From the NCBI GenBank assembly GCA_964276515.1, contig OZ193909.1, forward strand, positions 16,554,001 through 16,618,000: DNA of 64,000 nucleotides. Reading direction: 5' to 3'. This document shows, one piece after another, positions 2,564 through 42,900 of this stretch. The DNA comes from Gordius albopunctatus (lineage: Eukaryota). The position numbers and the translations under genes are program-made. Position 1 is the first letter of the stretch. Each line of letters starts with the position of its first letter. Under the pieces are notes generated by a model. That model made no database searches, had not been told where the DNA came from, and was given only the letters and a program-made list of their open reading frames with translations.

Positions 2564-2746
2564 TGTTTAACTTGAATTGTTTTTCCTTTGATATGATGTA
2601 TTTTCAATAGTTATTATTTTTAACAGCTGATTCTATATCTTTTTTTAATCTCTTCAATATGTTACAATAGCGATAATCTACCTTTTATATAATACAACTT
2701 ATAATATTATATTAATCCCCGCTTGGAAAGGTTACAGATCCTTACA
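2564..2746 (-). repeat. 3' LTR of element A
   Basis: Direct repeat of 8213-8395; on - it begins TGTAAG immediately after the polypurine tract and ends AAACA next to the TSD. Confidence 0.95.
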
Positions 2747-3478
2747 CCTCATTCTTTCAAATTGAGGGCCCACCAGGTCCGTACTGTCCCGCCCTGGAGT
2801 ATTTACTAATAACGTCATCTCTTCCTCCGGGCTGACCACGACCTGACTGTTGTTCCTTGTAACCACTTCCACACGTACCGGTTCCGTCGTCGTGTACGTG
2901 ACTACCGGAGCTATCGACATCACTGACGCTACCGATTCTACCGGCGGTACCGTCCTCTCCTGTCTTGCTTGCCTGAACGGGATTCTTCGCCTACACATCG
3001 GCATTCGGTGCCAGCTTCGGCATCCCCTGCAAAAGGCTCTAGTTTGCCTTATAGCTGTCGGCTGTCCTGCCTGTGGATAACGGGATGAGCTCCTTCTTTC
3101 TTCCGCCCTCGCCACGGGACGTATCTGGCGATTTTGGGTGTTTTGCGTTGTATTCGCTCGGGCTGCACGCGGGGTCACATTCTGACGCTGCACCCGGTCA
3201 ACTCGTCCAGCTAAGCTCCGGGCTTGGCCACGGTGTCTGGGTACCGTGTTGCTCTGCCTACCCGTATTAGGCCTAGCCGCTTCCTGACGTGTTGTCCGTC
3301 TATGTCTACCCGCCGCCCTTTCCTCCGTACGGGTGTTTTCGTGGCGCACGCTAACGTAGGGTTCCATTCTCCGTCGCTCTCGGACCTCAAACACTATCGG
3401 TCTCGGTTTCCCCCTACGTTCGTGGTCTAGTGCTCTCAAACGCACCTCTACGATCACCCATTCCGTTCGATATTCCAT
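2732..3478 (-). CDS. Element A ORF3: 248-aa Arg/Gln/Thr-rich protein with a C-x2-C-x3-H-x4-C knuckle, in the env position
   Basis: Open 248-aa ORF between the pol stop and the 3' LTR; motif CRGCRSWHRMPMC; pyrimidine tract + AG directly before its ATG; ends 15 nt inside the LTR. Confidence 0.75.
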   Translation of the reverse strand: MEYRTEWVIVEVRLRALDHERRGKPRPIVFEVRERRRMEPYVSVRHENTRTEERAAGRHRRTTRQEAARPNTGRQSNTVPRHRGQARSLAGRVDRVQRQNVTPRAARANTTQNTQNRQIRPVARAEERRSSSRYPQAGQPTAIRQTRAFCRGCRSWHRMPMCRRRIPFRQARQERTVPPVESVASVMSIAPVVTYTTTEPVRVEVVTRNNSQVVVSPEEEMTLLVNTPGRDSTDLVGPQFERMRCKDL

Positions 3479-3501
3479 CTAGATAAAATATAAAAAGATT
3501 A

Positions 3502-6500
3502 CTATATTAATCTAGAGCGTAACTGTTCCACGTGTCGCACGTGTCTACCCGGAGAAGCTAGCACTTCTATCTCGTACATTTTAGTACCTTTCCGAGATAG
3601 GATCTTAGCTTCTAACCATTTTTCTTTCCCTATATAATTACGCGCCCACACAGTATCACCGATTTTAAATTTAGAATCGCCCTGTGATCTGGTGTCTGAT
3701 TGCGCTGCCTGTAACATCGTATCCACTGGCGTGTGTGGTAAACGGCCCAGAAATATCTCGCCAACTGGTTGTCGAGAAGGGAACCTTGGTGCGACGTTGT
3801 GGTAAAGTCGATAAAGCCAAGTTCCGTCCTTTTCAACCTTAGCGTTCTTCAACCATCGTTTCACCACTGCCACGTGTCTTTCCGCGAGTCCATTCGTACT
3901 CGGATGATACGGAGGGGTAAGTAAATGCTGTATTCCCCATTTACTACAAAATTGTTTGAACTCGACGCTTGCAAAAGCTGTGCCGTTGTCGGATATAATC
4001 TTTTTCGGTATACCATACGCACCTGCAAGATTTTTTAAGAAATCGACCACTACTCCCGTAGATAACTTGCTCACTTGTTTATATTCAACCCAACTCGAGT
4101 GCGCATCTACGAGAATAATATATCTTTTTCCTTCAAAATCAAAGAAGTCCAGGTGTACTCTTTCCCAAACTTGTGTTGTGGACGGCCATCTGGCCTTTTT
4201 GTCGTGTCTTGGCGTCCTGGCAAGTTTTCCGCATTGCCCGCATTGTCCCACGAACAAGGTAATATCCCTTGATATCTTGGGCCACCAGACGTGTCTTTTC
4301 GCTAGACCTTTCATCTTGGCTATACCCGTATGACCTGCATGAAGTAATTCGAGTACCTGAGGTCGCAGCACCAACGGAATTACTATATTTTCGTTGCGTA
4401 GTAACACGTTGTTGTTGACCTCGAGTTCGTTTATTAAGCCTCGATAAGTCGATGGTAACGTTTCTAGTGTACTCTTCCCCGTCAAGTAATTTAACACCAA
4501 AATTAATTCTGGATCCTCTTGTACTAATTTGGCAAGATCGACATCTCCGCAATTTTGTGTTATTACGTTCACTTCAGCGAAGTTTTCGCCTTCTAACTCT
4601 TCGAAAGTTAGGTCATCATTATCGTTTCCTAGTCTCGATAATGTGTCTGGCAAGTGATTTGATTTACCTTTTCGGTATTTTAATGTTGCGTTGAAATTTC
4701 CCAGCGCCAATAACCATTTTTGCAGTCTCGGACTTAACAATAGATCCCTGTTGTCCTTTGCAAAAAGTGATACCAGCGGTTTATGGTCGGTAAAAATATC
4801 GAAACTTCGACCAATTAAGTATTCACGGCAACGGGTCAAACTCACTACTACCGCCAAAGCTTCCTTTTCAATCACCGAGTAATTAAGTTCAGCTTTGGTA
4901 AATTTTCGTGAAAAATATAGTATTGGGTGTTCCTCCTGATTGATCACATGCAACAGCACACCGCCTACACCTAGCTGTGACGCATCCACCGCTACGGCTA
5001 ATGGTAGATCGGGAACAAAGCATGTCAGAACAGGACCTTTCGTTAAAATATTCTTTAATGCGTCGAAAGCTTCCTGCTCCTTGTTCCGCCATATAAATCT
5101 TACTTTGTCCGTCGTCAACAAGTATAAAGGTGCCGCTATTTCCGCGATGTTAGGCATAAACTTGTTGTAGTAATTCACCGACCCAAGAAAGGATAGTGTC
5201 TCTTTCTTATTCTGTGGTGGTCGCATTTTAAGGATCGCATCCACTTTGCTTTGTAAGGGACGAACGACTCCATTACCCAATTGATGTCCCAAATATTTTA
5301 GTTCCGTCACTCCTATGACACATTTACTACGTTTTACCCGTAATCCTCGTTCCTGGATTCGTTCTAACACTGCCAACAAGTTATTATCGTGCTCCTTCAT
5401 TGTAGCTCCCACTACAAGAACGTCGTCTAAGTAGTAAAACACACCAGAAAGACCTTGAAATATTGATGCCATGGTCTTCTGAAACACGGGCGCACTTAGG
5501 CTGAGACCGAAGGGCAGTCTTTTAAACGCAAACAAGCCTAAGGACGTGTTTATTGTGGTTAACTTCGACGAGCGGTTATTTAACTTGATCTGGAGGTAAG
5601 CGTTAGCAAAATCCAACTTACTAAAATATTTGGCACCCTTCAGATTTGCGAAGATCTCTTCTATTCTGGGTAGGGGGTACTTTATTTCTACTATCCACGG
5701 GTTAAGAGAAACCCTGTAGTCCGCGCAAAGGCGCAAGCTGCCGTCTGGTTTTTTTACTGGCACCAGTGGCGTAGCCCATTCGCTATATTCCACCGGCTCG
5801 ATTATCCCTTGCTCTATCCATTGAAGCAAGATGGCTTCTACTTTCTCCCGCCAAACAAATGGTATCCTTCTCGCTGGCCAAAACTTTGGTACAGCGTCTG
5901 GCTTCAGTAGGATATCATACTCGTATCCCTTTAGGCATCCAAGCTCGTCTATAAAGATAGACGTGAACCTTTCCAACATCCATTGTAGACTTCCTGACCA
6001 ACCACTTAGGGACCGGACTGCATCGCCACCCATAAGATTACGAGTGTCGGTAGAAGATGTCGGTTGACCCCCCGACTCACTTTTTACCGATAGTCCGTTT
6101 ATTTCAGCTCCGAGAGAGGTAGACTTTAGAGCCCAAGCCATAAATGGCATCCTTAAGGGGTTCCTACCTGCTCCGCCGAAATCTTTTTCACCCATTTCCT
6201 GTGGCCCACTACATTGGATTTTTTTGCATAAGCCAAACCACTTGTTCAACGGCCCTATCATTTTAAGCCATTCCCACCCCAAAATCGGTCTAATCTCCAC
6301 GGACGTGATATATAGGGGTAAAGTTAACTTATTATTCTCGATAATAATTTCTACCTTTACCTTACCTATGACCTTAATTTCCGACCCATCCACTTGTTTT
6401 ATTTTAAGGTTCGGTCTTTCCCAGTGTCTATGGGGCCACAATTTTTTAAATTTGGTTACCCCCATTAGAGTTATGGTCGCACCCGTATCCATAAGAAATT

Positions 6501-7422
6501 CCACCTTCCTATTATCCACCCATAAATTAACTAACGGAATTTTATTTAAATGCAACCCTCCCATTAACCCTGCCAAACTTACACTATTATCCTTACTTTT
6601 ATTAATTACATTATCCCTACTAACTTCATTTTCTGCTATTTCCTTAATAAAACTTTCGTTAAACCTTGCGTTTTTTTCTATTCCGTTTTGATTCTTATTA
6701 CCAAGTGTTCTGAATACTTCAACCTCATTCTTTTCTTTCCTTACTTTTAAAGGAAAGCATTGCAAGGAGGGCCTACTATCTACTGGTAATTTTATGATTG
6801 TGGTTGACAGGGACCTTAAATCTTGTTTTTTAGGCCAAGATTTTATAGTAGAGGAGAATGCTCTAGAGGAGGGATATGCATGTGGCATATGTCTCTTATT
6901 AAAAGGCAAAGGGGACAATAACGAGGGTATTTTTATTTTAGGTTTAAAAGAGGGATATACATATGGTCTATTCCCTTTTAAATATTTAATTACCAGAGAA
7001 GCCGATAATAACGAGGGTATTTTTATTTTATGTTTAGTGAAAGATAAAGTAGTAGGGCATGTGCTCATCGAAAGGGACATTAAGGGAGGGATTAATGGTT
7101 TATCAAAGGGAACCGCTTTGATTAGGGATGGTAAAGTTATATTACTATTTTCAGTAGGGGGGATGGTTGGAATTCTACGCGGTTTTATATTTGATTTACG
7201 CCCAAGTTGGATAGGTTTAGTTGAGCTTAGAGTAATCTCTTTAAGGCGGTTGAAGCTATTTATTGGGGTAGGGGTTTTTGTTTTATTTATTAGACCAGGG
7301 GGGGTTGGAATATTTACTAGGGGAGGGGATATTGTGCTGTTTAGTAGGGGAGGGGTTTTTGGGCTTTTTGTTTTGGGAGAGGATTTTGGGATATTTAATT
7401 TGGGCGGGGATTTTTTTATCAT
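3502..7422 (-). CDS. pol: Element A Pol polyprotein (Pro/Lys/Ser-rich N-terminal region, aspartic protease, RT, RNase H, integrase)
   Basis: Motifs: protease FLMDTGAT; RT WATPLVPVKKPDGSLRLCADYR and YYLDDVLV; RNase H VDAS, EKEALAV, TDHKPL; integrase H-x3-H...CGQC, HLDF, SDNG, GLAERH; C-terminal SH3-like segment. Domain order is Ty3/Gypsy. Confidence 0.97.
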   Translation of the reverse strand: MIKKSPPKLNIPKSSPKTKSPKTPPLLNSTISPPLVNIPTPPGLINKTKTPTPINSFNRLKEITLSSTKPIQLGRKSNIKPRRIPTIPPTENSNITLPSLIKAVPFDKPLIPPLMSLSMSTCPTTLSFTKHKIKIPSLLSASLVIKYLKGNRPYVYPSFKPKIKIPSLLSPLPFNKRHMPHAYPSSRAFSSTIKSWPKKQDLRSLSTTIIKLPVDSRPSLQCFPLKVRKEKNEVEVFRTLGNKNQNGIEKNARFNESFIKEIAENEVSRDNVINKSKDNSVSLAGLMGGLHLNKIPLVNLWVDNRKVEFLMDTGATITLMGVTKFKKLWPHRHWERPNLKIKQVDGSEIKVIGKVKVEIIIENNKLTLPLYITSVEIRPILGWEWLKMIGPLNKWFGLCKKIQCSGPQEMGEKDFGGAGRNPLRMPFMAWALKSTSLGAEINGLSVKSESGGQPTSSTDTRNLMGGDAVRSLSGWSGSLQWMLERFTSIFIDELGCLKGYEYDILLKPDAVPKFWPARRIPFVWREKVEAILLQWIEQGIIEPVEYSEWATPLVPVKKPDGSLRLCADYRVSLNPWIVEIKYPLPRIEEIFANLKGAKYFSKLDFANAYLQIKLNNRSSKLTTINTSLGLFAFKRLPFGLSLSAPVFQKTMASIFQGLSGVFYYLDDVLVVGATMKEHDNNLLAVLERIQERGLRVKRSKCVIGVTELKYLGHQLGNGVVRPLQSKVDAILKMRPPQNKKETLSFLGSVNYYNKFMPNIAEIAAPLYLLTTDKVRFIWRNKEQEAFDALKNILTKGPVLTCFVPDLPLAVAVDASQLGVGGVLLHVINQEEHPILYFSRKFTKAELNYSVIEKEALAVVVSLTRCREYLIGRSFDIFTDHKPLVSLFAKDNRDLLLSPRLQKWLLALGNFNATLKYRKGKSNHLPDTLSRLGNDNDDLTFEELEGENFAEVNVITQNCGDVDLAKLVQEDPELILVLNYLTGKSTLETLPSTYRGLINELEVNNNVLLRNENIVIPLVLRPQVLELLHAGHTGIAKMKGLAKRHVWWPKISRDITLFVGQCGQCGKLARTPRHDKKARWPSTTQVWERVHLDFFDFEGKRYIILVDAHSSWVEYKQVSKLSTGVVVDFLKNLAGAYGIPKKIISDNGTAFASVEFKQFCSKWGIQHLLTPPYHPSTNGLAERHVAVVKRWLKNAKVEKDGTWLYRLYHNVAPRFPSRQPVGEIFLGRLPHTPVDTMLQAAQSDTRSQGDSKFKIGDTVWARNYIGKEKWLEAKILSRKGTKMYEIEVLASPGRHVRHVEQLRSRLI

Positions 7423-7524
7423 TATTTTGGGAAGGGATTTTTGGATAATTATTTTGTGAGGGTGGGGGACTGGACTTAATGATTTCAGATAATTATTTAC
7501 CGGTGTAGCAGCCCTCCCTGGTTG

Positions 7525-7869
7525 CTATTCTTTCTCCCCCTTCCTGCACCTACAACTACAGGTGCTAGGGCCAGGTTCTCCCTCTCTAGATACCTGTCTT
7601 TCCCCTTTAAAATTATTTTCACCTCGGGGTCTTTCTTGCCATACCCCACGCCCCTCTTTAGGACAATTCCTTCTTATATGGCCCCTTTTATGGCATAAAA
7701 AGCATTTTGGCCCATTTTTATATTCTATTGCACATATTATTTCATTATTCTTTTTAACCAACCAAACTAAAACCATGACTATTAACATTAAAACTATTAT
7801 AATTATATTTTCGCGTATACAATTAAATACTATGTTAATACTAAAAGTAGGTGGCTTAGTACCAAACAT
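7525..7869 (-). CDS. Element A ORF1: 114-aa protein with a hydrophobic helix and CCHC zinc knuckle (minimal Gag-like)
   Basis: Hydrophobic run IIIIVLMLIVMVLVWLV followed by KK; canonical C-x2-C-x4-H-x4-C knuckle CFLCHKRGHIRRNC; its TAG stop is in frame with pol. Confidence 0.8.
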   Translation of the reverse strand: MFGTKPPTFSINIVFNCIRENIIIIVLMLIVMVLVWLVKKNNEIICAIEYKNGPKCFLCHKRGHIRRNCPKEGRGVWQERPRGENNFKGERQVSREGEPGPSTCSCRCRKGEKE

Positions 7870-8199
7870 TTTAAAAAGTAAAATCTATTCAAATATCAAT
7901 GATGACAAAAGCAATTTTATTAATGCTATACGTAAAACCCTAAAAGAACAAATTAAATAAAATATAAGTACTATAAAGATAATTAATAAGTAGTTATTCA
8001 TATTATTTATGTAACTAAATATTATTAATTCGAAAAAAATATAATATTCAAACCAAAAATTCAGAAAAACTATTTATTCATAAATTTCATAAACTATTTG
8101 AATAAAACTTACACTCATTAAGTTGTATGTCGGATCCACGTATTTTTGTTTCGAATTTCGCACGGCTTGTTTTCTACTAACGGCTATGGGTACTTCTGT

Positions 8200-8210
8200 T
8201 TCTGACACCA
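8200..8210 (-). promoter_or_regulatory. Primer-binding site of element A (tRNA-Leu type)
   Basis: TGGTGTCAGAA two bases after the 5' LTR CA end; complementary to the ...TTCTGACACCA 3' end of eukaryotic tRNA-Leu. Confidence 0.8.
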
Positions 8211-8212
8211 AT

Positions 8213-8395
8213 TGTTTAACTTGAATTGTTTTTCCTTTGATATGATGTATTTTCAATAGTTATTATTTTTAACAGCTGATTCTATATCTTTTTTTAATCT
8301 CTTCAATATGTTACAATAGCGATAATCTACCTTTTATATAATACAACTTATAATATTATATTAATCCCCGCTTGGAAAGGTTACAGATCCTTACA
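8213..8395 (-). repeat. 5' LTR of element A
   Basis: Direct repeat of 2564-2746; contains TATATAAAAG and a downstream ATTAAA on the - strand. Confidence 0.95.
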
Positions 8396-8494
8396 CCTAC
8401 ATAATATTTACTTCTCGAAAGTGGTGACCCACCCTTGTTATACGCCTCCTTCTACCCTACCCTTACCCAACCCTGGTTATACGCAACCTTGTAA

Positions 8495-9304
8495 ATGGAT
8501 ACCAACCAAGTTGATGATGTCCAAATTAAATCGGAAAACGCTATATTTTTCAAATTGCCCCCCTTCAATCGTATAAATCCCCGATTATGGTTTGTCCAGA
8601 TAGAAGCCCTTTTCTCGATTCGACGAATAACATCTGAATCTAGCAAACTTGGATACGTGATAGAATGCCTCCCACAAGAAGTCACAATAGAGATCCAAGA
8701 TTACTTGGAGAATCTACAGGCTGAGGCCCCGTACACTACCATCCGGTCAGCTATCATCGACCGCACAACAAAATCGGACTTAGCACGATTCCACGACCTA
8801 CTGTCCAACGTGGAATTGGGCGATCGTACACCCTCACAACTCCATAGACACATGAAAAGCCTCCTGGGTACCGCCAAAATGGACGACATCATTTTAAAAC
8901 AACTGTGGTTGGAAAACCTGACAACCAGCATCTTGGCGATCTGTGCAAGTGACCAGACGTTAGTCAAGCTAGCTGAAACAGCTGATAAAATCGCGGAAAC
9001 GTACCATACGCCGCAAATATCCAACGTCGCCCCTGCCACACAGAGATCCCGCAACGATATTGAGACGCTCAGAGACATGGTCAATAGACTGAGCGTGAGC
9101 ATCGAGACATTACGGCAAGAGGTCAGTCAGAAAAATTGTTTTCGGTCGAGAAGTAGGTCTACATCAAGGCGATTTCGATCCCCGTTTCAACCCCACGCAG
9201 ACTTTCCCCAGGATTGGTGTTGGTATCACCAAAGATATAAGGAAAAGGCCACGAAATGCCGACAACCTTGCAATTATATCCCGATTTCCTTGTCAAACCC
9301 ATAG
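8495..9304 (+). CDS. gag: Gag of element B (CsRn1-like, CHCC zinc motif)
   Basis: N-terminus KLPPF...PRLWFVQIEALF, LGDRTPSQL, RSRSRS tract and CWYHQRYKEKATKCRQPC (CHCC), typical of CsRn1-clade Gag. Confidence 0.85.
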   Translation: MDTNQVDDVQIKSENAIFFKLPPFNRINPRLWFVQIEALFSIRRITSESSKLGYVIECLPQEVTIEIQDYLENLQAEAPYTTIRSAIIDRTTKSDLARFHDLLSNVELGDRTPSQLHRHMKSLLGTAKMDDIILKQLWLENLTTSILAICASDQTLVKLAETADKIAETYHTPQISNVAPATQRSRNDIETLRDMVNRLSVSIETLRQEVSQKNCFRSRSRSTSRRFRSPFQPHADFPQDWCWYHQRYKEKATKCRQPCNYIPISLSNP

Positions 9305-12300
9305 GCCTGCCAGAATCCGCCACACCCGGTTCAGGCCATAACATCAATCGCTTATTTTTTATTTTTGATAAATTAACGAAATTTTGTTTTTTAATAGACA
9401 CTGGCGCGGAAATAAGTGTCATACCACCCCCACGTAACCACCATCTCACCCCCTCACACATCCGCTTCCAAGCTGCAAACAATAGTTCCATACTGACCTA
9501 TGGCCAGAAATCAATGGAACTGGACCTTAGCTTACGGAGAAGTTTTCATGGGTGTTTACCATCGCCGACGTTAAGACACCGATCATCGGGGCTGATTTTT
9601 TAAATCATTATAACCTCCTCGTTGATATACGCCGCAAATGTTTATTAGACCCTAAGACTACTTTAAAGTCTTATGGGCGATATATTGATTCGAGCTTGTA
9701 CAATTTACAACTCGCAATAAAGATCGATTCACCGTATTTTAAAAATGTTTTAAAAGATTTCCCCGAGATTTATACCCTTCCAAATTAAAGGTCACGCGTA
9801 AGCCACCAAGTAGTCTACCACATACGTACACTATGACCCCCCGTTTATGCCAGACTTAGACGCTTAGACCCTGTCAAGCTAAAAATTGCCAAACAGGAGT
9901 TTACTCATATGCTCGAACTCGGCATAATTCAACCCTCAGAAAGCTTCTGGAGTTCTCCATTGCACATGGTTCCGAAAAAAACTCCTGGAGATTGGCGACC
10001 ATGTGGAGATTACCGAGCCCTTAACGTTATAACGATACCGGACCGTTACCCCTTGCCACACCTGCACGATTTCTCACTTAACCTAGCCGGCACAACCATC
10101 TATACAAAAATACATCTAGTCAGAGCTTACCATCAAATACCCGTAGCCTTGGAGGACATCGCAAAGACTGCAATAACCACACCTTTCGGTCTTTATGAAT
10201 TTTTTCGAATGCCTTTCGGTTCGCGAAATGCTGCTCAAACATTCCAACGCTTCATTGATCAAGCTCTCCGTGGTCTCAATTTCGCCTTCGCATATTTGGA
10301 CGACATTTTGATCGCAAATACATCAACTAGTGAACATTTAGACCACTTACGTCAAGTTTTTACTCGATTAAGAGATTTTGATATAAAGATCAACCTGGAC
10401 AAGTGCCAATGGGGACGTTCCTCTCTAGATTTCCTAGGACATCAAGTTTCCTCACAAGGTTTAACGCCAATATCGGAAAAGATCTCAGCCATCAAGAATT
10501 TCGCCACCCCGACCACTATGACACAACTACGTCGTTTCGTGGGAATGGTAAATTTTTACAGGTGTTTTATACCCAACTGTGCACGACATCTACAACCACT
10601 GACGGATCTCCTCAACGACGCAAAAGGACCTTTGGACATGACGCAGAGCGCACACGACGCATTCCACAAGATTAAAATAATGCTCGATAAAATTTCGACC
10701 CTTAATCATTTAGTTCATGGTGGCAACATCTCTAATACAACCGACGCGTCAAACTCTGCCATTGGAGCCGTACTACATCAGACCGTAAAAGGGGAAATCA
10801 GTCCTTTATTCTTTTTCTCCCTGAAATTGAGCAAAACACAAACTCGATACAGTACATTCGGGAGAGAACTGCTAGCAATTTATCTTTCAATTAAACAGTA
10901 CCGACATATTTTAGAAGGTCACGATTTTACAGTTTTTACTGATCACAAACCGTTAACTTACACTCTCAATTCTAAACCCGATAAATACTCGCCGCGCGAA
11001 ATACGACAATTAGACTATATCTCCCAATTTACTTCAAATATACAGTTTATTAAAGGTAAAGCGAATATAGTAGCAGACACTTTGTCCCGAATCGATATCG
11101 ATTCCATACAACAACCAAACTCCACCCAACAGCCGAACACATCCCTCACAGAAATAATTGCTATGACACAAAAACAAGAGCAATATTAACTAGAAGAGCT
11201 CGAAAGTCTTAAACTGGAACAACGCGTAATTCCAGGTACAAATTTAACTATTACGTGCGATACATCTGCATCGACTTCGAGACCTTTAGTACCTAGGACG
11301 CTCCGACGCATAGTTTTTAATCAACTACAAGGTCTTTCTCACCCAGCCTTATGCCCAACACTTAGACTAATTGCCCAACGTTTCGTCTGGCCGGGAATGA
11401 ACAAAGATGTACGCGATTGGACAAAGCAATGCATTGCGTGTCGAAAATTCAAAGTAAATAGACACGTAATATCAACCCCAGGCACGTTCGCTGAACCAGA
11501 CGCAAGGTTTAGCCACGTACATGTAGATCTCGTCGGACCCTTACCACCTTCTAACGGCCACATTTATATTTTTACTGCCGTTGATCGTTTCACCCGATGG
11601 CCGATTGCAATTCCCATTATTGACGCAACAGCCGAAACCGTTACACGCACATTTTTGACATACTGGATAGCCAACTTTGGTGTTCCGGCGACATTAACCA
11701 CGGACCGGGGACCGCAATTTCAATCTGCCCTTTTTAAACAATTATCTATTTTATTAGGGTATCATCATATCACTACGACAGCTTACCATCCACAAGCCAA
11801 TGGGATGGTAGAGCGATTTCACCGATAGCTCAATCATGACAAAAGGTGACGTTACCCGTTGGTCCGAACTTATTCCCCTTGTACTCCTAGGGATTCGCAA
11901 CACCATCAAGGAAGACCTTGCCTATTCAAGCGCGGAGTTGGTATAGGGTACTTCTTTACGACTCCCAGGAGATTTTTTACAACCGTCGGATCGCGACATA
12001 AACGACGCCGATTACATCCAACGCCTTAGACAGCAGTTTGATGATGTACGATTCACACCTTCCAGACCATTGAACATCAAACAACAATTGTCCGAAAATT
12101 TATTTACATCAACTCATGTTTTTATAAGGACTGATCGGCTACGCAAAGCCTTGGTTCCCCCCTATGAAGGACCTTTCAAAGTGATTGAAAAACATACTAA
12201 ATTTTTTATCATAGACCACAAGGGCAGGAAAGACACTGTCTCAATCGATCGATTAAAGCCAGCTTTCCTCGAGCCTAAGGTTGATAACCCGAATTCATCA

Positions 12301-12351
12301 GTTGACTCAAATGCACCCAAACCAAACAATCACTCAACGGCTATACAATAA
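9256..12351 (+). pseudogene. pol: Disrupted pol of element B (PR-RT-RH-IN)
   Basis: FLIDTGAEISV, YLDDILI, TDAS, ELLAIY, TDHKPL, HVDLVGPLP, TDRGPQF, NGMVERFHR and PYEGPFKV are spread over several ORFs broken by frameshifts and stops (~9550, 9788, 11189, 11828). Confidence 0.92.
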
Positions 12352-12737
12352 AGTAATTATTACTTTATCCTACTAATACTTACTTCTCGAAAAGCGCATT
12401 GAAAAAATTGATACCCGTAAGCCTTCGTATTCAATTTTCGGTCTGCTTATGGTTGAGTTGGCGTTAACCCAATTGACAGTATACACATCCAAGAATTTAT
12501 TGATAATTTGATAATCGACAAGAAGTAACTTTAATAATAGAATCAAAGTAGCGATTCGATAGGTTATAAGGAAATATGGTAATACAATTGACGGGGAAAG
12601 GTTTTGGGAGTTATCCGAGGCCAGAATAATAATAATAATAGTGTGTCCTCTAACTGGAAACATGGCCTTTTTATAATACCAGGATTTCCTGATCCCAGCC
12701 TGTTGCTTATTAGGAGAAAATGTTATTAAATTAACCC

Positions 12738-19400: not shown

Positions 19401-22400
19401 CCGGCTTTTAACTTTCTGACTTGCAGGTTCTAGTACAATCCCCGGAGAGGACAAAAATTTTTTTTTTAATTAAATTAATATTTTGTTATTGTTAATACCA
19501 TTGATAATATGACTTTTTGACCTTCCGCTGGCTACTTACCAATGAAAAAAATGACCATTGACCAAATAAATCGAATTTTTTCCCCTTTTTGAAATTACCC
19601 TATGTCCTCCCGTAGAAGGGCCTATGCTTCTACTGATATGGGTCCCTGTGCCCCTACAAAAGCCTATGCCCCTACTGATGTGGGTTCGAATCCCGGAGAG
19701 GACAAATTTTTTTTATTAATTAAATAGAAAATTTGTATTAATAAAAACTAATTATTTTGCATTTAATACCCCCCTATAGCCATTCTCGCCCATAAATTGC
19801 ATAGCAAATATGCTACTTTTATACAGAGTATAGATGAGTCGTTCCCCCTTCCCTCCTGCATCTCCCTCCCCACTTCCCTTCCCCCCTCCACCTTCCTGCG
19901 AAGGCCGAAGGCCCGAGTTTGTTAATATTTTGTTTTTTGATAGTTAAAACCGTTTTTTTCTGTTTATTTCAACTCTTGAGATTAATCGCTGGTATATTAT
20001 GCGTCTGAAATGAAAATCTGCTGTGAATTCGAAATTTAGACACGGCTATGTTATAACCCGTACAAAGATTTTCATCCGATATTAAGACAAGCTATAAGAA
20101 GGCCTTGTATTTTTTGTCTTGCGTTCTTCAGGGAGGCCCAAGGAGTTTTAATTAAGATTAGAAGAGGCAAATAAATCAATGCATGTAAAGTCCCATTTTA
20201 AAAAGCCATTTTACCGTGGGATTAGTGAGAAACCGTCAGGACGCATTCGACCTTCAAGGGGAGGAACCGAAGGTTAAAATATAGAAGGATTTTGGGCCTT
20301 TTTAAGGCCTCACTGGATAATGAAATTGATTTTAGAGTGCCCCGAGTGTCTAAATTTATATAGCCAACAATGTTTTATGGGTGGCGTACTTCTTCATCAA
20401 TTGGCACGTTGTAATTTTTACAGAGTTGTTAAGGAGCGCGCACCGGATTTCCGGTGCGACGTGCTGGTGCGCGTACTTTTTTATAACGAAGAGCGAGTGC
20501 GGGTGCGCGCACCTGATTAAGTCGGTGCGGGTGCGCAATTGCGCTCCTGTTTTGCTCACATTAAGAGTTTTACAATTTATTAATTTATTTGAAATTGTAT
20601 TATATCGCATATTTCACAAATTAAATTTCTACTGATTTACTATATATATAACATACATCTATGTTCCTGATGGAGAAGATAACAAGGTGGGAAATTGGTT
20701 ACTATCGATAGACAATAAAAATAATCTAACCGCGATATTTCACATTATTCACGTATTTACTTTATCAATCAACGATTAATCTTTACACTTTTGAACCTAT
20801 CTTTGCTATCGTAAGTTTAATCACATATAATGATCTAATTACAATTAATTTTAATTATTTATTTATATTATTTATTGTATTGGTTGTCATAGTACTCCTT
20901 ATCCAATTTTTTACTCTTTTCTTTTCTCACTGCTTATATATAACACCTTAATATGATAGTGAATTATGGAAATAGAAGAATCAAGCATAAATATAGCAAG
21001 CACATCATGCATGAAAATTTTTCCATTTCCAAAATATGCTAATATGTTTAAACTTAAAGATAATCAGCATAATACACTTAATTTTGAGGTGCAATGTCTT
21101 TTATGCAATGCCAAACTCAAGACTTCCTCTAGATCTTGTTTCAATTTGACTAGTCATCTAAAGGTAATCTTGTTACTTATTTTATAAAAAATTTATAGAG
21201 ATTTCATAGGACCTCTTTAGAAAATATAAAATATGACAATAAGAGAAAGAAAGTCTGTATTAATAAAGAAATTAAAAGGGTTGTGTGATTTAGATATATG
21301 CCAACCATTAGTGAATGCAATTATACAAGGGATCGTAAGAAGTTTTTATATATATAATAAACTTTAAATTATTCCTTGTATTTAAAAAGATTCCCAAATT
21401 TATATGACGATAATGTTATTGCAGCAGCAATTCTCAACCCTTTATTTAAAACAAATTTCAGTTGGTGCTATCAAGATGAAAACAAACCTATATTAAAAAA
21501 AAAATTCGATTAATTGAAAGTCAAATCACGCCAGGCGTGGAGGAAAAAGAAGTTTATGAACGTAAAGACTTTGATGATTTTTTCGAAATAAAATTAAAGA
21601 ACATAAAACAACTTTTCAGATGAACAAATTCTTGAGTGAAGGAAATTGTTGAAATATATCCAAAGTTGGTAGAAGATATCATAATTCAACGGTTTTATCT
21701 CCTTCCAAAATGCGCAAAGATTTAGCTAATGATTCCATAACCTATAAATCGATATGTAAATTTATAAACAGCTATTATGTCTGCTTAAAATGTAAAACTT
21801 ACTAAAGAATACTCACGAATAAATACTCTTTCTTCTTCTTTGAACCTAGATAAGCCTATTTCATCAAACAGATCATACAAATCGTATTTTTTGTTATCAA
21901 GCAATTTATTTAATAAATTCACAGCCTCATAATAACTATTACACCTAGTTTTATTTGGGGTAATTAAATATATTCCAATTTTCTCTTTATATATATCAGC
22001 CAACCGAGTGGACATATTTTGCTTATTCCACAAATTTTGGCATTTGTTAAATGTTGAACGAAATATTTTTTTAAAATTGTTATTCAAAAATGCTTCCTTG
22101 ATATCAACACTGGCTACCAAATTAAGACAATGACAAGCACAGCGCCCATGTTTTGGCAAATGTTCTGATTCTTCTTGAGGACAATTACTTATTATATCTT
22201 CAATATCCGCACTCTCTAAATCTTCATCTTGTTCCTGAACATCAGAATGTATTGTCTCTTCTTCATACACCCTATAACATATGCTTTATTTTTTTAAATA
22301 TACATGAAGGCTTTTACAAAGTTGTATCCATTGTCGATAATGGTTTGAACAACTTTGTTGTGAATTTTGAATTGCTTATGCACATCAATGATGTTCTTAG

Positions 22401-25400
22401 CAATCACATCATAGGTTTGCTTTCCTTGTATCTTTTTAAGACACAATCCAATTGATTTCCTCTCTAAGGTGCCTTGATTAATCCAGTGTGCTGTTAAGCC
22501 TAAATAAGCTCTAAATAAATTAGAATATAAAAATATTAGACTTTTTATAAATCATTACCTTCTACCAGTACTCCAGCAGTCTCAGCACTATGCATTTCTT
22601 CTTTGATTTTAGCAATTAACTTATTGAACCTACAAGTGATTCTAGATGTCAATGTCTGTCGACACATGACATCAACAGGAGATTTTGAGAAAGCACTTAG
22701 AGGATGGATTATCAATAATTGAAAGAGGCTGAATTGTGTTGATGACATAATTCACCAAGGCTTTTTCCCGACTTACCTCTTTAGTAAAGTTTATAATATT
22801 CTGGTTAGATTTATCTAAGACTTTCTTTTTCTTATTGTCATATTTTATATTTTCTAAAGAGGTCCTATGAAATCTCTATAAATTTTTTATAAAACAAGTA
22901 ACAAGATTACCTTTAGATGCCTAGTCAAATTGAAACAAGATCTAGAGGAAGTCTTGAGTTTGGCATTGCATAAAAGACATTGCACCTCGAAATTAAGTGT
23001 ATTATGCTGATTATCTTTAAGTTTAAACATATTAGCATATTTCGGAAATGGAAAAATTTTCATGCATGGTGTGCTTGCTATATTTATGCTTGATTCTTCT
23101 ATTTCCATAACTCATTATCATATTAAGGTGTTATATATAAGCAGTGAGAAAAGAAAAGAGTAAAAAATTGGATAAGGAGTACTATGACAACCAATACAAG
23201 AATAATATAAATTAATAATTAAAATTAACTAATTTAATATATTTTAATGAAAATTAATTGTAATTAGATCATTATATGTGATTAAACTTACGATAGCAAA
23301 GATAGGTTCAAAAGTGTAAAGATTAATCGTTTATTGATAAAGTAAATACGTGAATAATGTGAAATATCGCGGTTAGATTATTTTTATCCAATTTCCCACC
23401 TTGTTATCTTCTCCATCAGGAACATAGGATAGCTCGCTATCTTCTAACATCATAATGGAGAACTTGCTAGGAAAAGCCTCGAGCCATTCATGTCCAGATT
23501 TACCAAACACCAAAGATCTAAGGTTGTAATGTTGTTTGGTATCTCAGCTCGAAAGGAGATAAGCAATGGGGCGCGAAACCAAACAAGTATCCCAATCCTT
23601 TTGATTTAAGGTTGGTGGTAGGGACATTTCTGGTATAACATTTAAATTCCCAAGCTCATTGAGGGAATAGGGGATTAATTTAGCGACGTTAGATTTTGAG
23701 GATAAGTGGGAGGATACAAATAAGGGGTTATAAGGAGCTGTGTGAACAAATTCCCAGGCCCCTAGATTTTGTTGGTAATGTGGCTTGTAGCCAGGTGTTA
23801 GTATCGAATGATAAGTTGAGGGTGGATTCTATGACAGATTTATGTGGGTTTCAAAATTACGTAAGATTTGTGTACGCAAAAATGCGCTTTTGGAACGGAA
23901 GCAGAATAATATTTTGGTAATATTAAAGTAGTTTTTTAATATATAAAATACATGAGGGGCGGGCATAAGCATTAAGATTTCATTTTAACATTTAAAATTT
24001 TTATAGTTATGGTCGAGATAACTTCTTAACTATTCTGGACCGCCTATTTGTAGAGCCTAGTAAAAAAATCTCGTTCTTTTCAAGGCGTATAAAAGATGCA
24101 AAGAATGGGTGGATGTAAGTTGCTGCCAGAATGAATTTCACATTTGTAGCGTATAAAGATAGGTTATGTTTTATATAATATTTGATGATGTTAAGAGCTT
24201 TGGTCAGCTCTTCCGGGGTTCCTGATAGGGTGGCATCGTCGAGGTACCATAGGTTTAACCTCAAATTGCATTTGTCTATTAATATTTTGATGGCCATAAA
24301 AAATAAGGGGGGAGGCAAGAGGGTCCTCCTGTTATATCCCCTCAGCTGAATCAATAAAAAATTGTCCAAATTTTAAGAATATATAGTTCGCATATTGAGG
24401 AAAGGCATCGATGAAAGTACTAATAAAGGAATTTCGATTGTTAAAGGCGATTTGAAAGTGTAATTTTATGAAAGACTCGCTGGGTGGTATATTTAAGGGT
24501 CAATCTAGCAGCATGCGTAGCTCTTTCGCATTCCCCTTTAACAGCGAGTAGATAGATAAATTATGCTTGATTAATATGCATAAACTTTAGATATGATTCT
24601 CCAAGAAACTCCGCCGATGGCGATCGGTCTTAAAGTTTTGTTCTGTTTTTGAATAACAAGTAACTTGGTCCCAAAGATTATTGGCCATACTTCTTGAGGA
24701 ATGTTGCCATTAATAATTAAGTTGCAAAACTAAGTTAGTGCAGCGAGTTGAATTGAAGAATTGATATTTTATATTTTCTTGAAGATAAATTTCTTTGATA
24801 CCATCCAAGCCTGCTGCAGAGCCGATTGGGATGGATAGCTTCACTAATTTCCGAGGATTCTAGGATTAAGTTGGATGGCGTAAGGGGAAAGCAATACTGG
24901 GACAAATTGGGTATTTGCAAGAAGTTGTTCATATGATTCCTGACTAGGGGTTAAAATTGGATTGCTCTCCTCAGTCTTCCATGGCCCCTTTTATGTTAAA
25001 TGAATGAATTTTCCTGGATATCTTTCTGATTTTAACCCCTATTCAGGGATCATATAAACAACTTCTTACAATATACCCAAAACATTTGTCCCAGTATTGC
25101 TTCCCCCTTAATCAATCCTCATAAATTAGTGCTATCCATTCCTTCCCAATTGACTCTATGATATCAAACCAACTTATCTTAAAGATCTTATTAAAATTGA
25201 AAATATAAATTCCTCAATTTTACTCGCTGCGCTAACTATATTTTGTAATTTAATTGTTAATGGCAACATTCCTCAAGAAGTCCGACCAATAAACTTTGGG
25301 GTCAAGTTACTTGCTATTCAAAAACAGAACAAAACTTTAAGACCGATCGCCATCGGCGGAGTTTTCGGAGAATCATATCTAAACTTATGCAAATCAGTCA

Positions 25401-27996
25401 AGCATAATTTATCTTCATCTCTAATGCCTCATCAGCTAGGATCCCTAGTTCAGGGGGGATGCGAAATAGCTAAGCATGCTGCTAGATTGACCCTTGAAAT
25501 ACCAAACAACATTACATCCTTAGATCTTTGGTGTTTGATATGTAAATCTGGACATGAATGGCATAAGGCTTTTCCCAGCAAGTTCTCCAATAGGGTGTTA
25601 GAGGATTGTGAGTTATACTCAATATAGCACTACACCGAATCAAATACAGCAAAGCATATTACTCTAAAAAATGCTACCTGCCAGGTGATAAAGAAGCACG
25701 CCACCCCTTACACTGCAGGTTGAATAAATTTAGACACTCGTGACACTCTTAAATGAATACCAATATCTAGTCAGCCCTTAAAAAGGCCCAAATTCCATCC
25801 ATACACTAACCTTCAATTTCATCCCTTGAAGATCGAACGCTTCCTGACGATTCCTCACTTGTTCCATGGAAAAACAGTCTCCCTCTAAAATGATATTTTA
25901 CATGCATGACTTATTTGCCCCCTCTAATCTTAATTATTACCCCATGGCCCTCTTGGAATCTAGTATTTTTATCCCAATGGTTTCCTCCTGCTCAAAATCT
26001 TATGGAAAATGGCGCTAGTTTTATTCAAAGAGAAGGCGATCCCCTCCCTCTAAATATTCCCCCCGAATTTTTGTTGAAACAATCAATAGCTATCTAAATT
26101 GCAAAATTTAATTTGAAATCTTTTTTGGATTTCTTGCCTCTTGTGAAAGACGGAGATAAAGACATATTATTTAATAATGTTTTTTAAAATTAGTATTATA
26201 TAATCTAAGTATTTAATATTATGCTCAGATATATAATCAATAAACTTACTTCAGTAATTCCCCCCCCCCGGCAAAAATTTGAAAGGTTTTTTGATTAATA
26301 ACTAAATTTAATGGGTTAAAATAATATATTTTAGTTACATCAAAGACTTTAAGATACTTATAAAACCTAGAAACATAATATATACATATAATTCTTTTGA
26401 TTTAAATTTTGACAAAATTCATTGTAAAATTTCCGAATATGATTGTAAAAATTGGTATGGAAAAAAACTAGTTTGAACATTTATATTCCGTGAAAACACT
26501 AGACCGCCCAGGAAGTAGATAACTAAGCGATTATTATAATGTTTTTCATTCTACATAATATTAATACTTTTATAATATTTGTCTAAAATTTTCTGCTAGA
26601 ACCCATCACGGTTCAACTAAATTGCCTGGCAAGGCCAGCCAAAACCCTTTAATTGTCCAATTCACTAATGTTGTCCGAACAGAGGGGCCCAAAATGACGA
26701 TTTTAAATTTCAAGAATTAATTTTGTCCTATTTTCAAACATTTTTGATCTGATTCTAGAATTTTAATAAATAGAAAGGCGATAAAAAAATAGTAAACTAT
26801 TTAAAAATTTTTATCATGGTGCCCGCCCAGGCCTACTTAAAAATCTCAATTTAGAACGTTAACCTGCTCGACCCCTTAGCCGAGAGGGCCCAGTAGCGAG
26901 CCCGGCTTTTTGGTTGTTTAATTTTTATTTTTAATTACAAATAAAATGTAAATAAATTTTTTAGCCAGCTTTCCCCCCCCCCCCCCCTTCGAGAAAATTC
27001 TGACTACGCGCCTGACTTTATCTTAAAAAATAATCCAGCCTATAAAATACTTTTCCAATTGTCTTACGAATTGAATTTTCTAATGACCTATAATAATGCT
27101 CTTGAGAGTATTGTTTAAATCAAATACTTTGCAAATTCTATTAAACTTTATAAGATAAATTGTTTTTAATTTTGATTAATAAACTTAGGATAATAAAATA
27201 CTTTTAAATTATACTAGACCGCAGCCCTTGGAGAAAAATTTAAATTTTCCAGGTCACGAAGTTTATACACTGGTGCACAGGCATTCAAATATCGTAGCCC
27301 GAGCCGAACAACTGTTATATACATACTTAAAGTGCGTTTTGTAAAAAATATGTGAAACTTTAGGCGGCAAAAGGGATTATAATCCACGACCTGTGAATGC
27401 TTTACTAAGACTTGCGGTTTTGGCTTTCATTTATTTAAAAAGTTTGATAAATTTGTTAATTCTGACGTAAAGGCGCTATCATATAAAAATTATGATGGCA
27501 CTCTAAAGGTTCACAATGAATAAATTATTAAAAATTTAATTTTTGACGATTTATTAAGAACGTTTTACACTTTTCTTGTTACTTTATAGGACCAGCCATT
27601 AAATCACAATTTTAAATATATTAATTAATTGTCGATCCAGAGCTTTTATAAAGTTAAAGTATTTGAACTTTTTTTTTCATTTAGCCCTAACTCTTCTGAT
27701 CAACCACCTAAATCGAAAAAAACGATCGAAATTCAGCTTCTCAAGTATGTTAATTTTTGTTCTATGTTTGATGTTAAGATTTAACTAAAAAGGTTTATTT
27801 CAATATTTAGGCAATATGTGTTAACAAATTTTGACATTTATTTAATTTTAGGTGCAAAGAGGAGCTGGAAGAAATGCTGATGACGATATTTCCAGTCTTC
27901 GAAACGATTTACGCCCCAAGAACTATACACGAATGGAAGGACACTTTCATAAAACCTCACATAAATAGGATCGAAAATGTTCTCGCCAATCATTGA
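13452..27996 (+). CDS. HEXD: Hexosaminidase D-like glycoside hydrolase family 20 (multi-exon)
   Basis: Exons read by eye: 13452-13524, 13561-13629, 13703-13757, 13826-14023, 14290-14454, 15080-15263, 15786-15923, 16805-16937, 17958-18131, 27218-27331, 27685-27744, 27852-27996. Motifs VHLDLKGAPP, EYEDMFPY, PLIQTFGHVEF, HIGADEV (catalytic DE), WDDMLR, WGASAFKGA, TGWQRY, CELLP, FPG and TIHEW. The true start exon was not identified; an in-frame ATG lies at 13568. Confidence 0.92.
16201..16550. mobile_element. PIF/Harbinger-type MITE family 2, copy 1
   Basis: Degenerate TIRs GGGCTTGTCTCAATATCGGA / TCCGATATTAAGACGAGCG; homologous to 44305-44587 and 58125-58473. Confidence 0.8.
17161..17471. mobile_element. 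Probable non-autonomous DNA transposon with GC-rich CGGGY subterminal repeats
   Basis: Short TAGATTTG / CAAATCTG ends, CGGGC/CGGGT repeats at both ends and an AT-rich core, resembling the hAT element at 50287-52243; no clear TSD. Confidence 0.45.
19233..20094. mobile_element. PIF/Harbinger-type MITE family 2, copy 2, carrying a nested DINE/HINE-like element
   Basis: TAA-GGGCTTGTCTTAATATCGGA ... TCCGATATTAAGACAAGC-TA-TAA; colinear with 44305-44587 once 19333-19922 is removed. Confidence 0.85.
19333..19922 (+). mobile_element. DINE-1/HINE-like (Helentron-associated) non-autonomous element, copy 1
   Basis: 5' TTGCTATACAATTTATGGGC with an asymmetric inverted copy GCCCATAAATTGCATAGCAA (~19788-19807), GTCC microsatellite near the 5' end, 3' stem-loop GGCCGAAGGCC, T-rich ends; second copy at 50933-51700. 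Confidence 0.75.
20421..23427. mobile_element. Rearranged hAT transposon: two convergent partial copies with ~600-bp inverted arms
   Basis: Probable terminus CAGAGTTG at 20421 followed by GTGCG subterminal repeats. BED-finger first exon on + (20966-21187) and on - (22887-23108), differing at 3 of 73 residues. Transposase core on - (CACHCLNL, TPNKTRCNS; 21785-22270). Confidence 0.85.
25040..26250 (+). mobile_element. Decayed CRE-like non-LTR retrotransposon, copy 2 (internally deleted)
   Basis: LRPIAIGG, PHQLG..VQGGCEIAKHAAR, GHEW, LEDCEL and LVPWKN fragments; reverse complement of segments of copy 1, including the 3' end. Confidence 0.8.
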
Positions 27997-39900: not shown

Positions 39901-42900
39901 AGGGAATGTCTTTGATATTTCGTAAAATTAGGGTTGAAAGCTTAAATATCATCATTATTACCCCCTTCTAGTTTAGATCCAGTTATTTTTATTGGGCGCA
40001 TGAGACTATAAACGATGTGGCGTTAAGCTATATTATGACGTAGCCTCCTATGATAAATTATGAAATTAGGTTGTTAAAATTATTTCTTAATAATTATTAT
40101 TGGACATATATGGAATTAGAGGTCTACCTTTCGGATTTTGATCAAGCACTACACCTCTCGAAATTGATTTAAATTGATGTTTTACCTTGGACCTCGAAGT
40201 GGATTTTATTATGAAGTCTAGCTTTAACGGTTGCATTTGTGAACCTTATAAGTCTTCTCCAAAATAACTTTGCTTCGCTAAGTATGAAATTAATTACCAA
40301 CATTATGTTTTCGTAGGAATTTGCTGTAAAATTACTCAAAATATTGTTTTTTTTATAAATTTAAAAATAGACATAACGAACATTGATTCGTATTGGTACA
40401 ACCTATATTCTATGCGTTATGATGGGCCCAAATCGCCACTGAAATCTAGTCTTGCGGTCTACTCGGCTACCTTTGACAGGTTGTTGGAGAAGAGCTTGGG
40501 ATGGACTGAGTGCTTGGAAAAAGAGAAATCCTCTTTTCGATATTATAACTTGACAACGACTTTGGAAGACATTAATTTATATTAGTAAATTTTCAAAATC
40601 TAGATGTTTTTTATTATAAGATTTTTAAAGGGAAAATATAACTTAAGGTATAATTTAAATAATATTACTTTATTGTAACTAGGGGTTTAGAATAAAACTT
40701 GTGGTTCTTTATAATTTTTTCTCTGACTGTCACCTTTGCTGGCCGTCACTGTCAGTTCCAGAATTGTTTAATTGCTCGTCCAGACGCGAGTATGTACACT
40801 GAGTTTTAAAATAAACTCGTTAGCATATGAAAATGTGCTCAAGAGCTTGAGTCGAAGCGACAAAATTGCAGATTTATCAGAGGCAATTGCTACGAGTTGG
40901 TAACCTTAATAATTTTATTTATATTATATATATCACAGCTAAATTAAGAACACTTTGCCCCTTTTCTCTACCCCCTCCCTCCCCCACAGGGAAGGAGGTC
41001 CCTTTTTCCTGGGGCAAATACCTCCGCCGCCCCCCTCCAGTGGGAGGGAAAGGCTGGAGGAAGGGGGCATAGTTCTTAATTTAGCTGTAATCTATTATAT
41101 GGGCAGATTTTTAAAGTTACTAGCTCCTAGCCATTGCTTCTTATAAATCTGCTCATTGCTTCAACAGATTATTTTTAATTCTTCCTTTATACTTTATTCC
41201 GTGATTCTACATAAGCTTAGTAGGCCCTCCTCTTTTGATTTTCCATCGTGTTTTATCCTTTCTACCTATTATCTCGTCTCTCTACACGACCATATATTAT
41301 CTTAATCTCTTTGTCACGAGCTTGATGTTCGTATTAATTTTTGTAATTCATGTATAAACATGAAACATTTTGTTATCTTTTAGTTTCGCCGACGTGAAAC
41401 AAGGAATTTTAGCTACGTATGGGAAAAAGGTGGTGTGGCGTTCATCAATATTTGCACTAACTCGCGTAATTGAATTACGGGCCGAGGGATATTTTAAAAG
41501 GAAAATAGATGCCAACCAAAAGAAGAGTCCGATATTTACCAAATTCGAGGTTAGTCTTCTTGGGTTTTGTTTTCCTGCAACCTCGGTATTACATATACTA
41601 TAATCAATGGTAAATGTATTTTAGCTTAGTTTATAGAAATCGGTAGCTTTAATTTTTAATCCAAATTTCATAATTATTGGCTCCTGGTCAATTCTTGGTT
41701 CATGTATAATGTTCCCATACACTAATAGACTGCTCATTCACTTTTAAAAAGTGTTCCACATTTTGGCAGCCATTTTAATAAGTTAAACATGCATTTTGGC
41801 AGCCAATCTATATGGTTTGATGCATTTTTAAAATCGCTACAATGATTAAAAGGGGTTGTTTCATGTTATAAGATCAAAGATTATTGTCCAATACAATCTA
41901 TGGCTACACAAACTCTACTTCACTTATCAAAATGGCGGTCGTTTTTGGCAACACTTTTGATGAGTGAATATACAAGAGATGAGCAGTCTGTTAGTCTATG
42001 AATATTCCTTATTCATTAGAAATATGTCTTGAATATTTTCATCTTTGGAGACTTGTTATTTTTCTGAAGTTTTTGGATTTAAACAATTTATTTGGCAGCA
42101 ACTGGACAAAATTTAATCGGGCGAAATTGGGATTTAAAAATACAAAAATTTATCGACTTTTGACGCTTAACAATAGAATTAAACTTGTTTATTACGCTTA
42201 ATCAACGTGTCTTTTACTGAAAATCATTGGGCATTTATTTCACTTTCCATTTTTGCCTCTAACGATTTCCCGTCATTTTGAATTATGCTATATAATAACA
42301 AAATAGAAAATTAATTTTTTTGTAAACTATATAAACATTATAAATTTTTAGTAACCTTAAATTAATTATTATTACCAATGCTATAAAAACTTATATTATT
42401 TACGACTAAAAAACTATAAAACGCGCTCAAACTAAACGGATGCCATTGATCCGTGTATGGAAATCGTGTCGTATTTAACGATTTCCATTGTGATCATTTT
42501 TTATACAAATATACGAGCATGCACATGGGAGGAGCAGGAGAGACAGCTGTCCCCCTCTAAACCAAAAATATGTTGAAATTTATTGAAATTATGGGTAAAA
42601 TTTCAAAGAATGATCATTTTGCCCCGCCCCCCCCCCCTCTAATCCCAATGCTGTCTACGCCCGTGAGCATGCACGCACACATAATGTGAATGACTTTGCT
42701 ATAAGGTTGGTGAAAGTCCGGATTTTAAGGAGGGCATATTTCGGAACCACGCCTCTATGTTGGGAACCGATGCCGATATTCGCTTGTTAATAACACTCGA
42801 TCCGTCCGCTTTGAAAGCTGCGATAGCAGAAAAACGGGCTAAACGCGACGTCAAAGCCGTTGGAAAAAATGGGCAAAAGGAAGTTGTAAAACCCCTACCC

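Follow-up and report, generated by a model that had tools for sequence, protein, structure and literature searches.

We find that a young, Mag-like Ty3/gypsy retrotransposon carries an orphan, arginine-rich open reading frame (ORF3) with a zinc knuckle between pol and its 3' LTR, and that its ORF1 has no detectable capsid domain. The element lies in a 64,000-nt stretch of Gordius albopunctatus DNA, hereafter the window (Table 1). ORF3 is very probably a real gene; our confidence is high because the readings that make it non-functional or a displaced piece of another gene carry little probability. We tentatively propose, as a plausible account somewhat short of a probable one, that ORF3 is an intact, family-specific, non-envelope gene, likely expressed from a spliced RNA and likely encoding a stand-alone nucleocapsid-like RNA binder. 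Whatever role ORF3 may have, we infer it from sequence.

Table 1. Features of the retrotransposon and their positions in the window.
Feature	Positions	Strand	Details
Whole LTR retrotransposon, Mag-like Ty3/gypsy	2564..8395	-	5832 nt; LTR pair, target-site duplication (TSD), pol domains
Target-site duplication GTAGG, 5 bp	8396..8400	-	second copy 2559-2563
5' LTR, 183 nt, TG...CA	8213..8395	-	TATA-like word 8338; ATTAAA 8298
Primer-binding site (PBS) TGGTGTCAGAA	8200..8210	-	2 nt past LTR
First ATG of element (8118), then candidate donor AGT/GTAAGT	8107..8118	-	exon end 8113
T-rich leader	7870..8118	-	ORF1 frame with 2 stops; second strong acceptor 7939
ORF1, 114 aa, hydrophobic stretch and one CX2CX4HX4C knuckle	7525..7869	-	without capsid domain
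ORF1 stop TAG-CAA-CCA (CARYYA read-through context)	7519..7527	-	in frame with pol
pol frame, 1340 codons; 1306 aa from ATG 7422	3502..7524	-	PR, RT, RNase H, IN
23-nt AT-rich spacer, candidate 3' splice site	3479..3501	-	branch-like TAAT, pyrimidine tract, TAG/ATG
ORF3, 248 aa, Arg-rich, orphan	2732..3478	-	open frame between pol and 3' LTR
CX2CX3HX4C zinc knuckle, ORF3 residues 150-162	2993..3031	-	motif and shuffle tests
Polypurine tract (PPT), 11/12 purines	2747..2758	-	within ORF3
3' LTR, 183 nt	2564..2746	-	0 mismatches to 5' LTR; ORF3 ends in first 15 nt

The element has all the hallmarks of Ty3/gypsy: TG...CA LTRs, a TSD, a PBS, which we take to be of tRNA-Leu type, a PPT, the PR-RT-RH-IN order and catalytic motifs. 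Its identical LTRs and intact pol motifs show that it is young and was recently active. Placing it by homology, we scored 7984 candidate pol relatives, of which 438 passed 1e-50; the best 120 of these 438 are 31-45% identical to pol, with the best match at 39% over RT-IN. Informative names among the relatives listed are mostly K02A2.6-like, and we take such polyproteins to represent the Mag lineage. RT-RH is 47% identical to the best relative versus 33% to the neighbouring gypsy element, and viral contigs held no close pol relative. An RT-RH tree of 38 rows comprised 36 of 117 well-aligned relatives, the element's protein and the neighbouring element as outgroup, and no named Mag references; there the element sits on a long branch next to the outgroup, which leaves its position within the tree uncertain. 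With the Mag lineage it shares the domain order and, as described for Culex Mag (PMC3286476), short LTRs, a 5-bp TSD and a Leu-type PBS; the lack of GPY/F is shared with the bdelloid Mag elements as that source presents them (PMC5408684). It differs in having no detectable capsid domain, a one-knuckle ORF1, no integrase tail, an extra 3' ORF, a long RT branch and stop-codon read-through instead of one gag-pol ORF; the Mag-type Gag, with a capsid and two knuckles in one ORF with pol, was not found. We file the element as Mag-like, an atypical member of the lineage. Troyka was considered and ruled out, as the CG...CG termini and 3-bp TSD by which its source characterizes it (PMC12440569) are not those of this element.

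The ORF3 frame is as the preliminary description had it, starting 23 nt past the pol TAG. It differs from the pol frame, and an in-frame TAG directly precedes its ATG. Because this TAG shuts the frame, ORF3 is unreachable from pol by a simple frameshift, a route that we accordingly ruled out. Also borne out are the C-x2-C-x3-H-x4-C motif (CRGCRSWHRMPMC, residues 150-162), the Val/Thr/Glu-rich tail, and last codons that span the PPT (2758-2747) and, with the stop codon, extend 15 nt into the 3' LTR. ORF3 had been called rich in Arg, Gln and Thr; Arg is strongly enriched (19.8% of residues), whereas Gln (6.0%) and Thr (8.9%) are not, and Val reaches 10.9%. Set against expectation from base composition, Arg (49 versus 34.8) and Val (27 versus 12.9) are in excess, and Lys (2 versus 13) and Gly (9 versus 28) are scarce. 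The computed pI is 11.6 and the net charge +25. An AlphaFold2 model from the single sequence was uninformative (pLDDT 39.9).

Neither the frame nor the knuckle of ORF3 is due to chance. In simulations drawing on the region's own composition, an open frame of at least 240 codons arose in 1 of 5000 sense-strand runs (order-2 Markov) and in 40 of 3000 six-frame runs (order-1), and the five other frames over the region contain 6-17 stops. The strict CX2CX3HX4C knuckle appeared 0 and 1 times per 100,000 shuffles in two runs, and a broad pattern of metal ligands turned up in 103 of 100,000. Codon-position bias is detectable (p 0.0025) in a weak test that gave p 0.12 for an integrase control. ORF3 has a GC content of 0.54-0.59, unlike pol; a structured RNA behind this GC-rich segment was ruled out (folding stability z -0.79). 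We weighed whether ORF3 might be a captured or vestigial sequence without function, open because the copy is young and its DNA T-poor. That reading would be in keeping with a GC content unlike that of pol, the absence of a homologue in any set searched, the mostly neutral intragenomic variation reported for bdelloid ORF3s (PMC5408684, as far as that account goes) and the lack of time for young copies to decay. We nevertheless judge it unlikely: simulations with the region's composition still yield only 1 such frame in 5000, and coincidence would hardly produce together an ATG exactly at the best acceptor, a knuckle that is not random and a 3' end that crosses the PPT to stop within the LTR. 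A weak further point is that no ORF3 indel occurs among the 12 of 64 rows listed in a contig comparison.

ORF3 matched nothing in Pfam (E up to 1, zinc knuckle included), PHROGs or PDB sequences (E up to 10), and no homologue was found among 903 near-length and 2535 longer candidates, among 1.84 billion representatives searched with phmmer, or among 281 pattern matches in metagenome contigs. BLASTP against the 120 Mag-like pol relatives returned no match below E 0.5. No known env or host gene therefore matched ORF3 in the databases searched. That ORF3 is not an envelope, as first suggested, is upheld by the lack of a transmembrane stretch and of viral fusion-protein homology (Pfam, PDB, phmmer). 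Its maximum 19-residue hydropathy (KD19) is 1.22, so by this hydropathy measure, used in place of a dedicated predictor, it has no signal peptide or transmembrane segment, in agreement with the preliminary description. Atlas leads for ORF3 were weak because recognition (1548) fell below the 2300 mark; the best scored 0.77 and two of three clusters were zf-CCHC (0.76-0.77, all under 0.9). The atlas gave nothing usable for ORF1.

We compared both ORFs with a profile built from the Gags of 64 relatives. ORF3 residues 108-163 aligned with the linker and knuckle 1 at only 2.5 bits, a match driven by the motif and the low-complexity linker; nothing in its first 107 residues resembles the capsid part of this profile, and the protein continues for 86 residues past the knuckle. 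Of 81 full-length relatives, at least 67 have two Gag knuckles, and in 27 the first one is CX2CX3HX4C. The ORF3 knuckle has the CX2CX3-4HX4C ligand spacing of the Gag type. A Gly after the second Cys of the knuckle, present in 50 of 62 relatives, is absent from ORF3. ORF1 matched knuckle 2 of the same profile at 11.5 bits.

The 'minimal ORF1' of the preliminary description is real, with no capsid domain detected. Just 54 residues precede its knuckle, and it has a hydrophobic stretch (KD19 2.87) followed by basic residues. Searching all six frames of the element with the Gag profile yielded knuckles only and no match to the capsid part. In a control set of 79 independent Mag-like loci, this profile detected the capsid part in 64, with a median best score of 236 bits across the 66 loci with any match. 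A very diverged capsid is conceivable, but against it speak the few residues ahead of the ORF1 knuckle and the make-up of the hydrophobic leader and the Pro/Lys/Ser-rich pol N-terminus. The latter matched no PHROGs family, and its single-sequence AlphaFold2 model was uninformative (pLDDT 45.5). Over 6730-7524 (- strand), the start of pol comprises ~260 Pro/Lys/Ser-rich residues in C-rich DNA, which contains short internal repeats, 33 nt being present twice.

At the ORF1 stop, the CARYYA word stands out: it follows just 1 of the 352 stop triplets in the element, and the 5832 nt contain 12 CARYYA words. CARYYA after UAG is a named read-through signal (PMC3441728, in the portion available). Upstream, the leader has 2 stops in the ORF1 frame versus a simulated mean of 9.1 (2 or fewer in 27 of 5000 simulations); this scarcity might reflect small membrane ORFs, further read-through or decay. 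The leader translation is very hydrophobic and includes a 38-aa ORF that starts at ATG 8001; in the ORF1 frame, each of the three stops ahead of pol comes after a GAA codon. Antisense frames over 6068-7957 are, we infer, shadow frames.

Other copies of the element were sought in and beyond the window. The window itself holds no second copy. Element sequence occurs in two runs of one study (X1 and X2), neither on record as RNA, whose contigs cover all 30 bins of the element. Summed depth in the two ORF3 bins was 146,893 and 56,303 in X1 and 14,097 and 9,154 in X2, with pol similar; flank contigs reached 515 and 205, respectively, far below the ORF3 bins. The high ORF3 depth shows that many similar sequences exist and is not a copy number. 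Low summed depth over 6404-8238 was not taken as a signal, as dips can stem from filtering. In each run, one contig carries the pol end (3537) and ORF3 sequence (3357) joined across undetermined bases, and one contig passes over 87 nt within ORF3. In the contig comparison, the 40 of 1021 rows listed include no substitution in ORF3, and the 12 of 64 indel rows listed none that falls there. A 385-nt X2 contig spanning 7848-8232 has 3 differing letters; as two of these are listed elsewhere, it must share at least one of the two leader stops.

Synonymous differences made up 2 of 13 in 6068-8013 versus 4 of 6 in RT-IN (among the 40 of 1021 rows listed), and the 5' part therefore looks weakly constrained. 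Such a pattern, a missing capsid, and knuckles of type 1 in ORF3 and type 2 in ORF1 would be expected if ORF3 were a displaced piece of an ancestral Gag (linker and first knuckle) or an integrase tail, left in a dependent element that borrows Gag. We hold this to be very unlikely given a Gag-profile match of 2.5 bits, 107 leading residues that are not capsid-like and 86 that trail the knuckle. In addition, the read-through signal of ORF1 is purpose-built and points to an established layout instead of a recent accident.

ORF3 is not a general feature of Mag elements. In the 79 Mag-like loci, the integrase end aligned in 60, and 45 extended at least 300 nt past the pol stop. Six of these 45 had a sense ORF of at least 120 aa within 900 nt past pol; at five of the six the Gag profile matches there, reflecting circular contigs or the next copy. 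The remaining one, the 219-aa downstream ORF of locus L013, was ruled out as an ORF3 analogue, because this locus is broken and interspersed with parts of different elements. At L013:2828-3845, a broken Mag-like locus is followed by both-strand fragments resembling other elements. An ORF3 analogue thus occurs in 0 of the 45 loci with room for one.

The element sits in the end of the apparent 5' LTR of an older, stop-broken gypsy element (2298-2563 and 8401-12392, + strand) with a PBS-like TGGTGACCC at 8421; the 52 nt that surround the insertion site are found again at 12342-12392. The older element is presumably CsRN1-like, and the PBS type of TGGTGACCC is likewise our presumption. One X1 contig joins 2561 to 8402, representing either an empty site or another LTR copy. 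Elsewhere in the window, nested long inverted repeats at 20659-23427 and 24492-25619 (arms up to 385 nt, 98% complementary) surround transposase-like and RT-like fragments and are probably remnants of a DNA transposon and non-LTR elements. A 602-codon open frame at 48347-50155 (+) has protein-kinase-like motifs, and we presume that it resembles a testis-specific Ser/Thr kinase. Two further open frames, at 42694-43149 (+, 151 codons) and 55433-56149 (+, 238 codons), are host-like.

A separate expression route for ORF3, as the preliminary description proposed, is backed by a strong candidate splice acceptor at its ATG. The spacer has 11 pyrimidines in 14 positions, 10 of them T, and among the 176 sense-strand YAG sites the acceptor shares the top score with the site at 7939. 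The candidate donor at the first ATG reaches 7 of 9 and was chosen by position and not by score, given that three sites reach 8 and at least 12 more also have 7. Spliced to 3478, this donor would give an in-frame product of 250 aa, and spliced to two leader acceptors, products of 7 and 18 aa; joining donor to ORF3 in frame has a 1 in 3 chance. The env gene of insect gypsy elements uses a leader ATG through splicing, a statement for which we found no supporting literature. ORF3s of LTR elements are typically made from spliced RNA, according to the text available to us on bdelloid families (PMC5408684).

With frame, knuckle, charge and splice-site words all present in the sequence, we surmise the following sequence of events for a nucleocapsid-like ORF3. 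An intron from 8112 to 3479 would remove ORF1 and pol and place ORF3 in frame behind the first ATG (250 aa), while translation of unspliced RNA would produce ORF1 (114 aa) and, where ribosomes pass its leaky stop, ORF1-Pol. Through its knuckle and its disordered, Arg-rich half, ORF3 may bind unspliced RNA, condense it and act as a chaperone for tRNA annealing and strand transfer. It would thereby provide the nucleocapsid activity in which ORF1, with one knuckle and no capsid, is deficient. The shell would come from another Mag element in trans, or there would be none. We favour this reading because ORF3 is basic, has no confident fold (a weak point) and shows the knuckle spacing of Mag Gags, and because the element's own Gag is short of a knuckle and a capsid. 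Counted against it are the 2.5-bit Gag match, the absence of a Pfam knuckle, the missing Gly and a donor scoring 7 of 9. Nucleocapsid is normally cut from Gag and is not a separate 3' gene. Like nucleocapsids and Arg-rich proteins of the HIV Rev type, ORF3 is basic and of low complexity, has a CCHC-type motif and prefers Arg over Lys; it differs from nucleocapsid in its X3 spacing and in lacking the conserved Gly, and it has no clear export signal.

A self-sufficient, capsid-less design is conceivable too, and we think it unlikely. There the jobs of Gag would be split between a membrane-anchored ORF1, tiny and with one knuckle, that tethers Pol through leaky-stop read-through and a spliced ORF3 that condenses RNA from the env slot. 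Under such a split, we propose, reverse transcription would take place without a capsid shell, inside a ribonucleoprotein condensate bound to a membrane.

The basic, disordered, spliced profile of ORF3 fits an export factor equally well. The main rival to a nucleocapsid-like role, possible if rather doubtful, is accordingly a Rev/CERV-like regulator made from fully spliced RNA, which would act in the nucleus and export unspliced element RNA through its Arg-rich region. Strong splice sites would create an RNA retention problem for the element, and Arg far exceeds Lys in ORF3, with Arg clusters at residues 21-38. HIV Rev is an Arg-rich export protein, and CERV of the Caenorhabditis elegans element Cer1 provides a precedent as its source describes it: spliced, nuclear, with a Cys-rich loop, and needed for export of genomic RNA (PMC10309623). 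An export role is weakened by a Leu content of 2.8% with a lone, weak NES-like pattern at residue 180, and by the absence of unusually stable RNA structure in ORF3 (z -0.79). Compared by description, CERV is also a different protein: it is 517 aa long, is made from five exons in the gag region, and has three folded domains and a C4-type loop. None of these features was detected in ORF3, and Cer1 has a capsid (PMC10309623). Shared by the two are an orphan accessory gene in a gypsy-type element, spliced RNA and a Cys-rich motif tied to genomic RNA.

The end of pol bears on a further group of roles. Pol has no GPY/F and no tail, ending directly after the SH3-like part of integrase, whereas 56 of the 120 relatives aligned there have a tail (median 78 aa). 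ORF3 might then be an integration co-factor that replaces the integrase tail in trans, or else a silencing suppressor or a transcriptional or chromatin factor; taken together, such accessory roles are doubtful candidates. All the evidence for a real gene counts here as well, and varied family-specific ORF3 functions are on record (PMC5408684, as far as its account extends). No positive evidence singles out any one of them. The relatives' tails are acidic and Pro/Ser-rich (Arg 7.7%) with a knuckle in 0 of 56, and the lack of a BLASTP match between ORF3 and the relatives also speaks against tail replacement. The nucleocapsid-like reading thus remains the one that we favour, tentatively.

The preliminary description overstated the case in treating an envelope as the usual product of an extra 3' ORF in gypsy elements; family-specific, non-envelope ORF3s are documented in the available account of bdelloid elements (PMC5408684). 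Those of Vesta, Juno and TelKA resemble ours as third ORFs past pol that are non-envelope, family-specific and typically spliced. They differ in encoding GDSL esterases, DEDDy exonucleases, coiled-coil or transmembrane proteins and in accompanying a normal gag, and none is described there as an Arg-rich knuckle protein (PMC5408684). The sORF2/FAST-like proteins of the MDG1 group are also small accessory ORFs, downstream of pol in some moths, within what that source covers (PMC11952523). Compared by description, it is ORF1 here and not ORF3 that has their hydrophobic stretch followed by basic residues; ORF3 lacks a membrane segment, and ORF1 differs from them in carrying a knuckle and reading into pol. 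Non-envelope ORF3s and spliced RNA regulators of LTR elements are thus already known from the accounts available (PMC5408684, PMC10309623). In the literature covered, which takes in few subscription journals and not Repbase, we found no Mag-type element with a non-envelope ORF3 and no capsid-less element with an intact pol.

The missing capsid is the most interesting part of the element. LTR retrotransposons are as a rule assumed to carry a Gag that forms a capsid. If ORF3 proved neutral and a helper supplied Gag, this would be an ordinary dependent element. At the least, the element brings a new kind of accessory gene to the Mag-like lineage, found in none of the relatives surveyed, and shows again that equating ORF3 with env is unsafe. 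Together, a just-transposed element with an intact pol, no detectable capsid and a new basic knuckle protein offers a test of whether the shell of an LTR retrotransposon can be borrowed or dropped.
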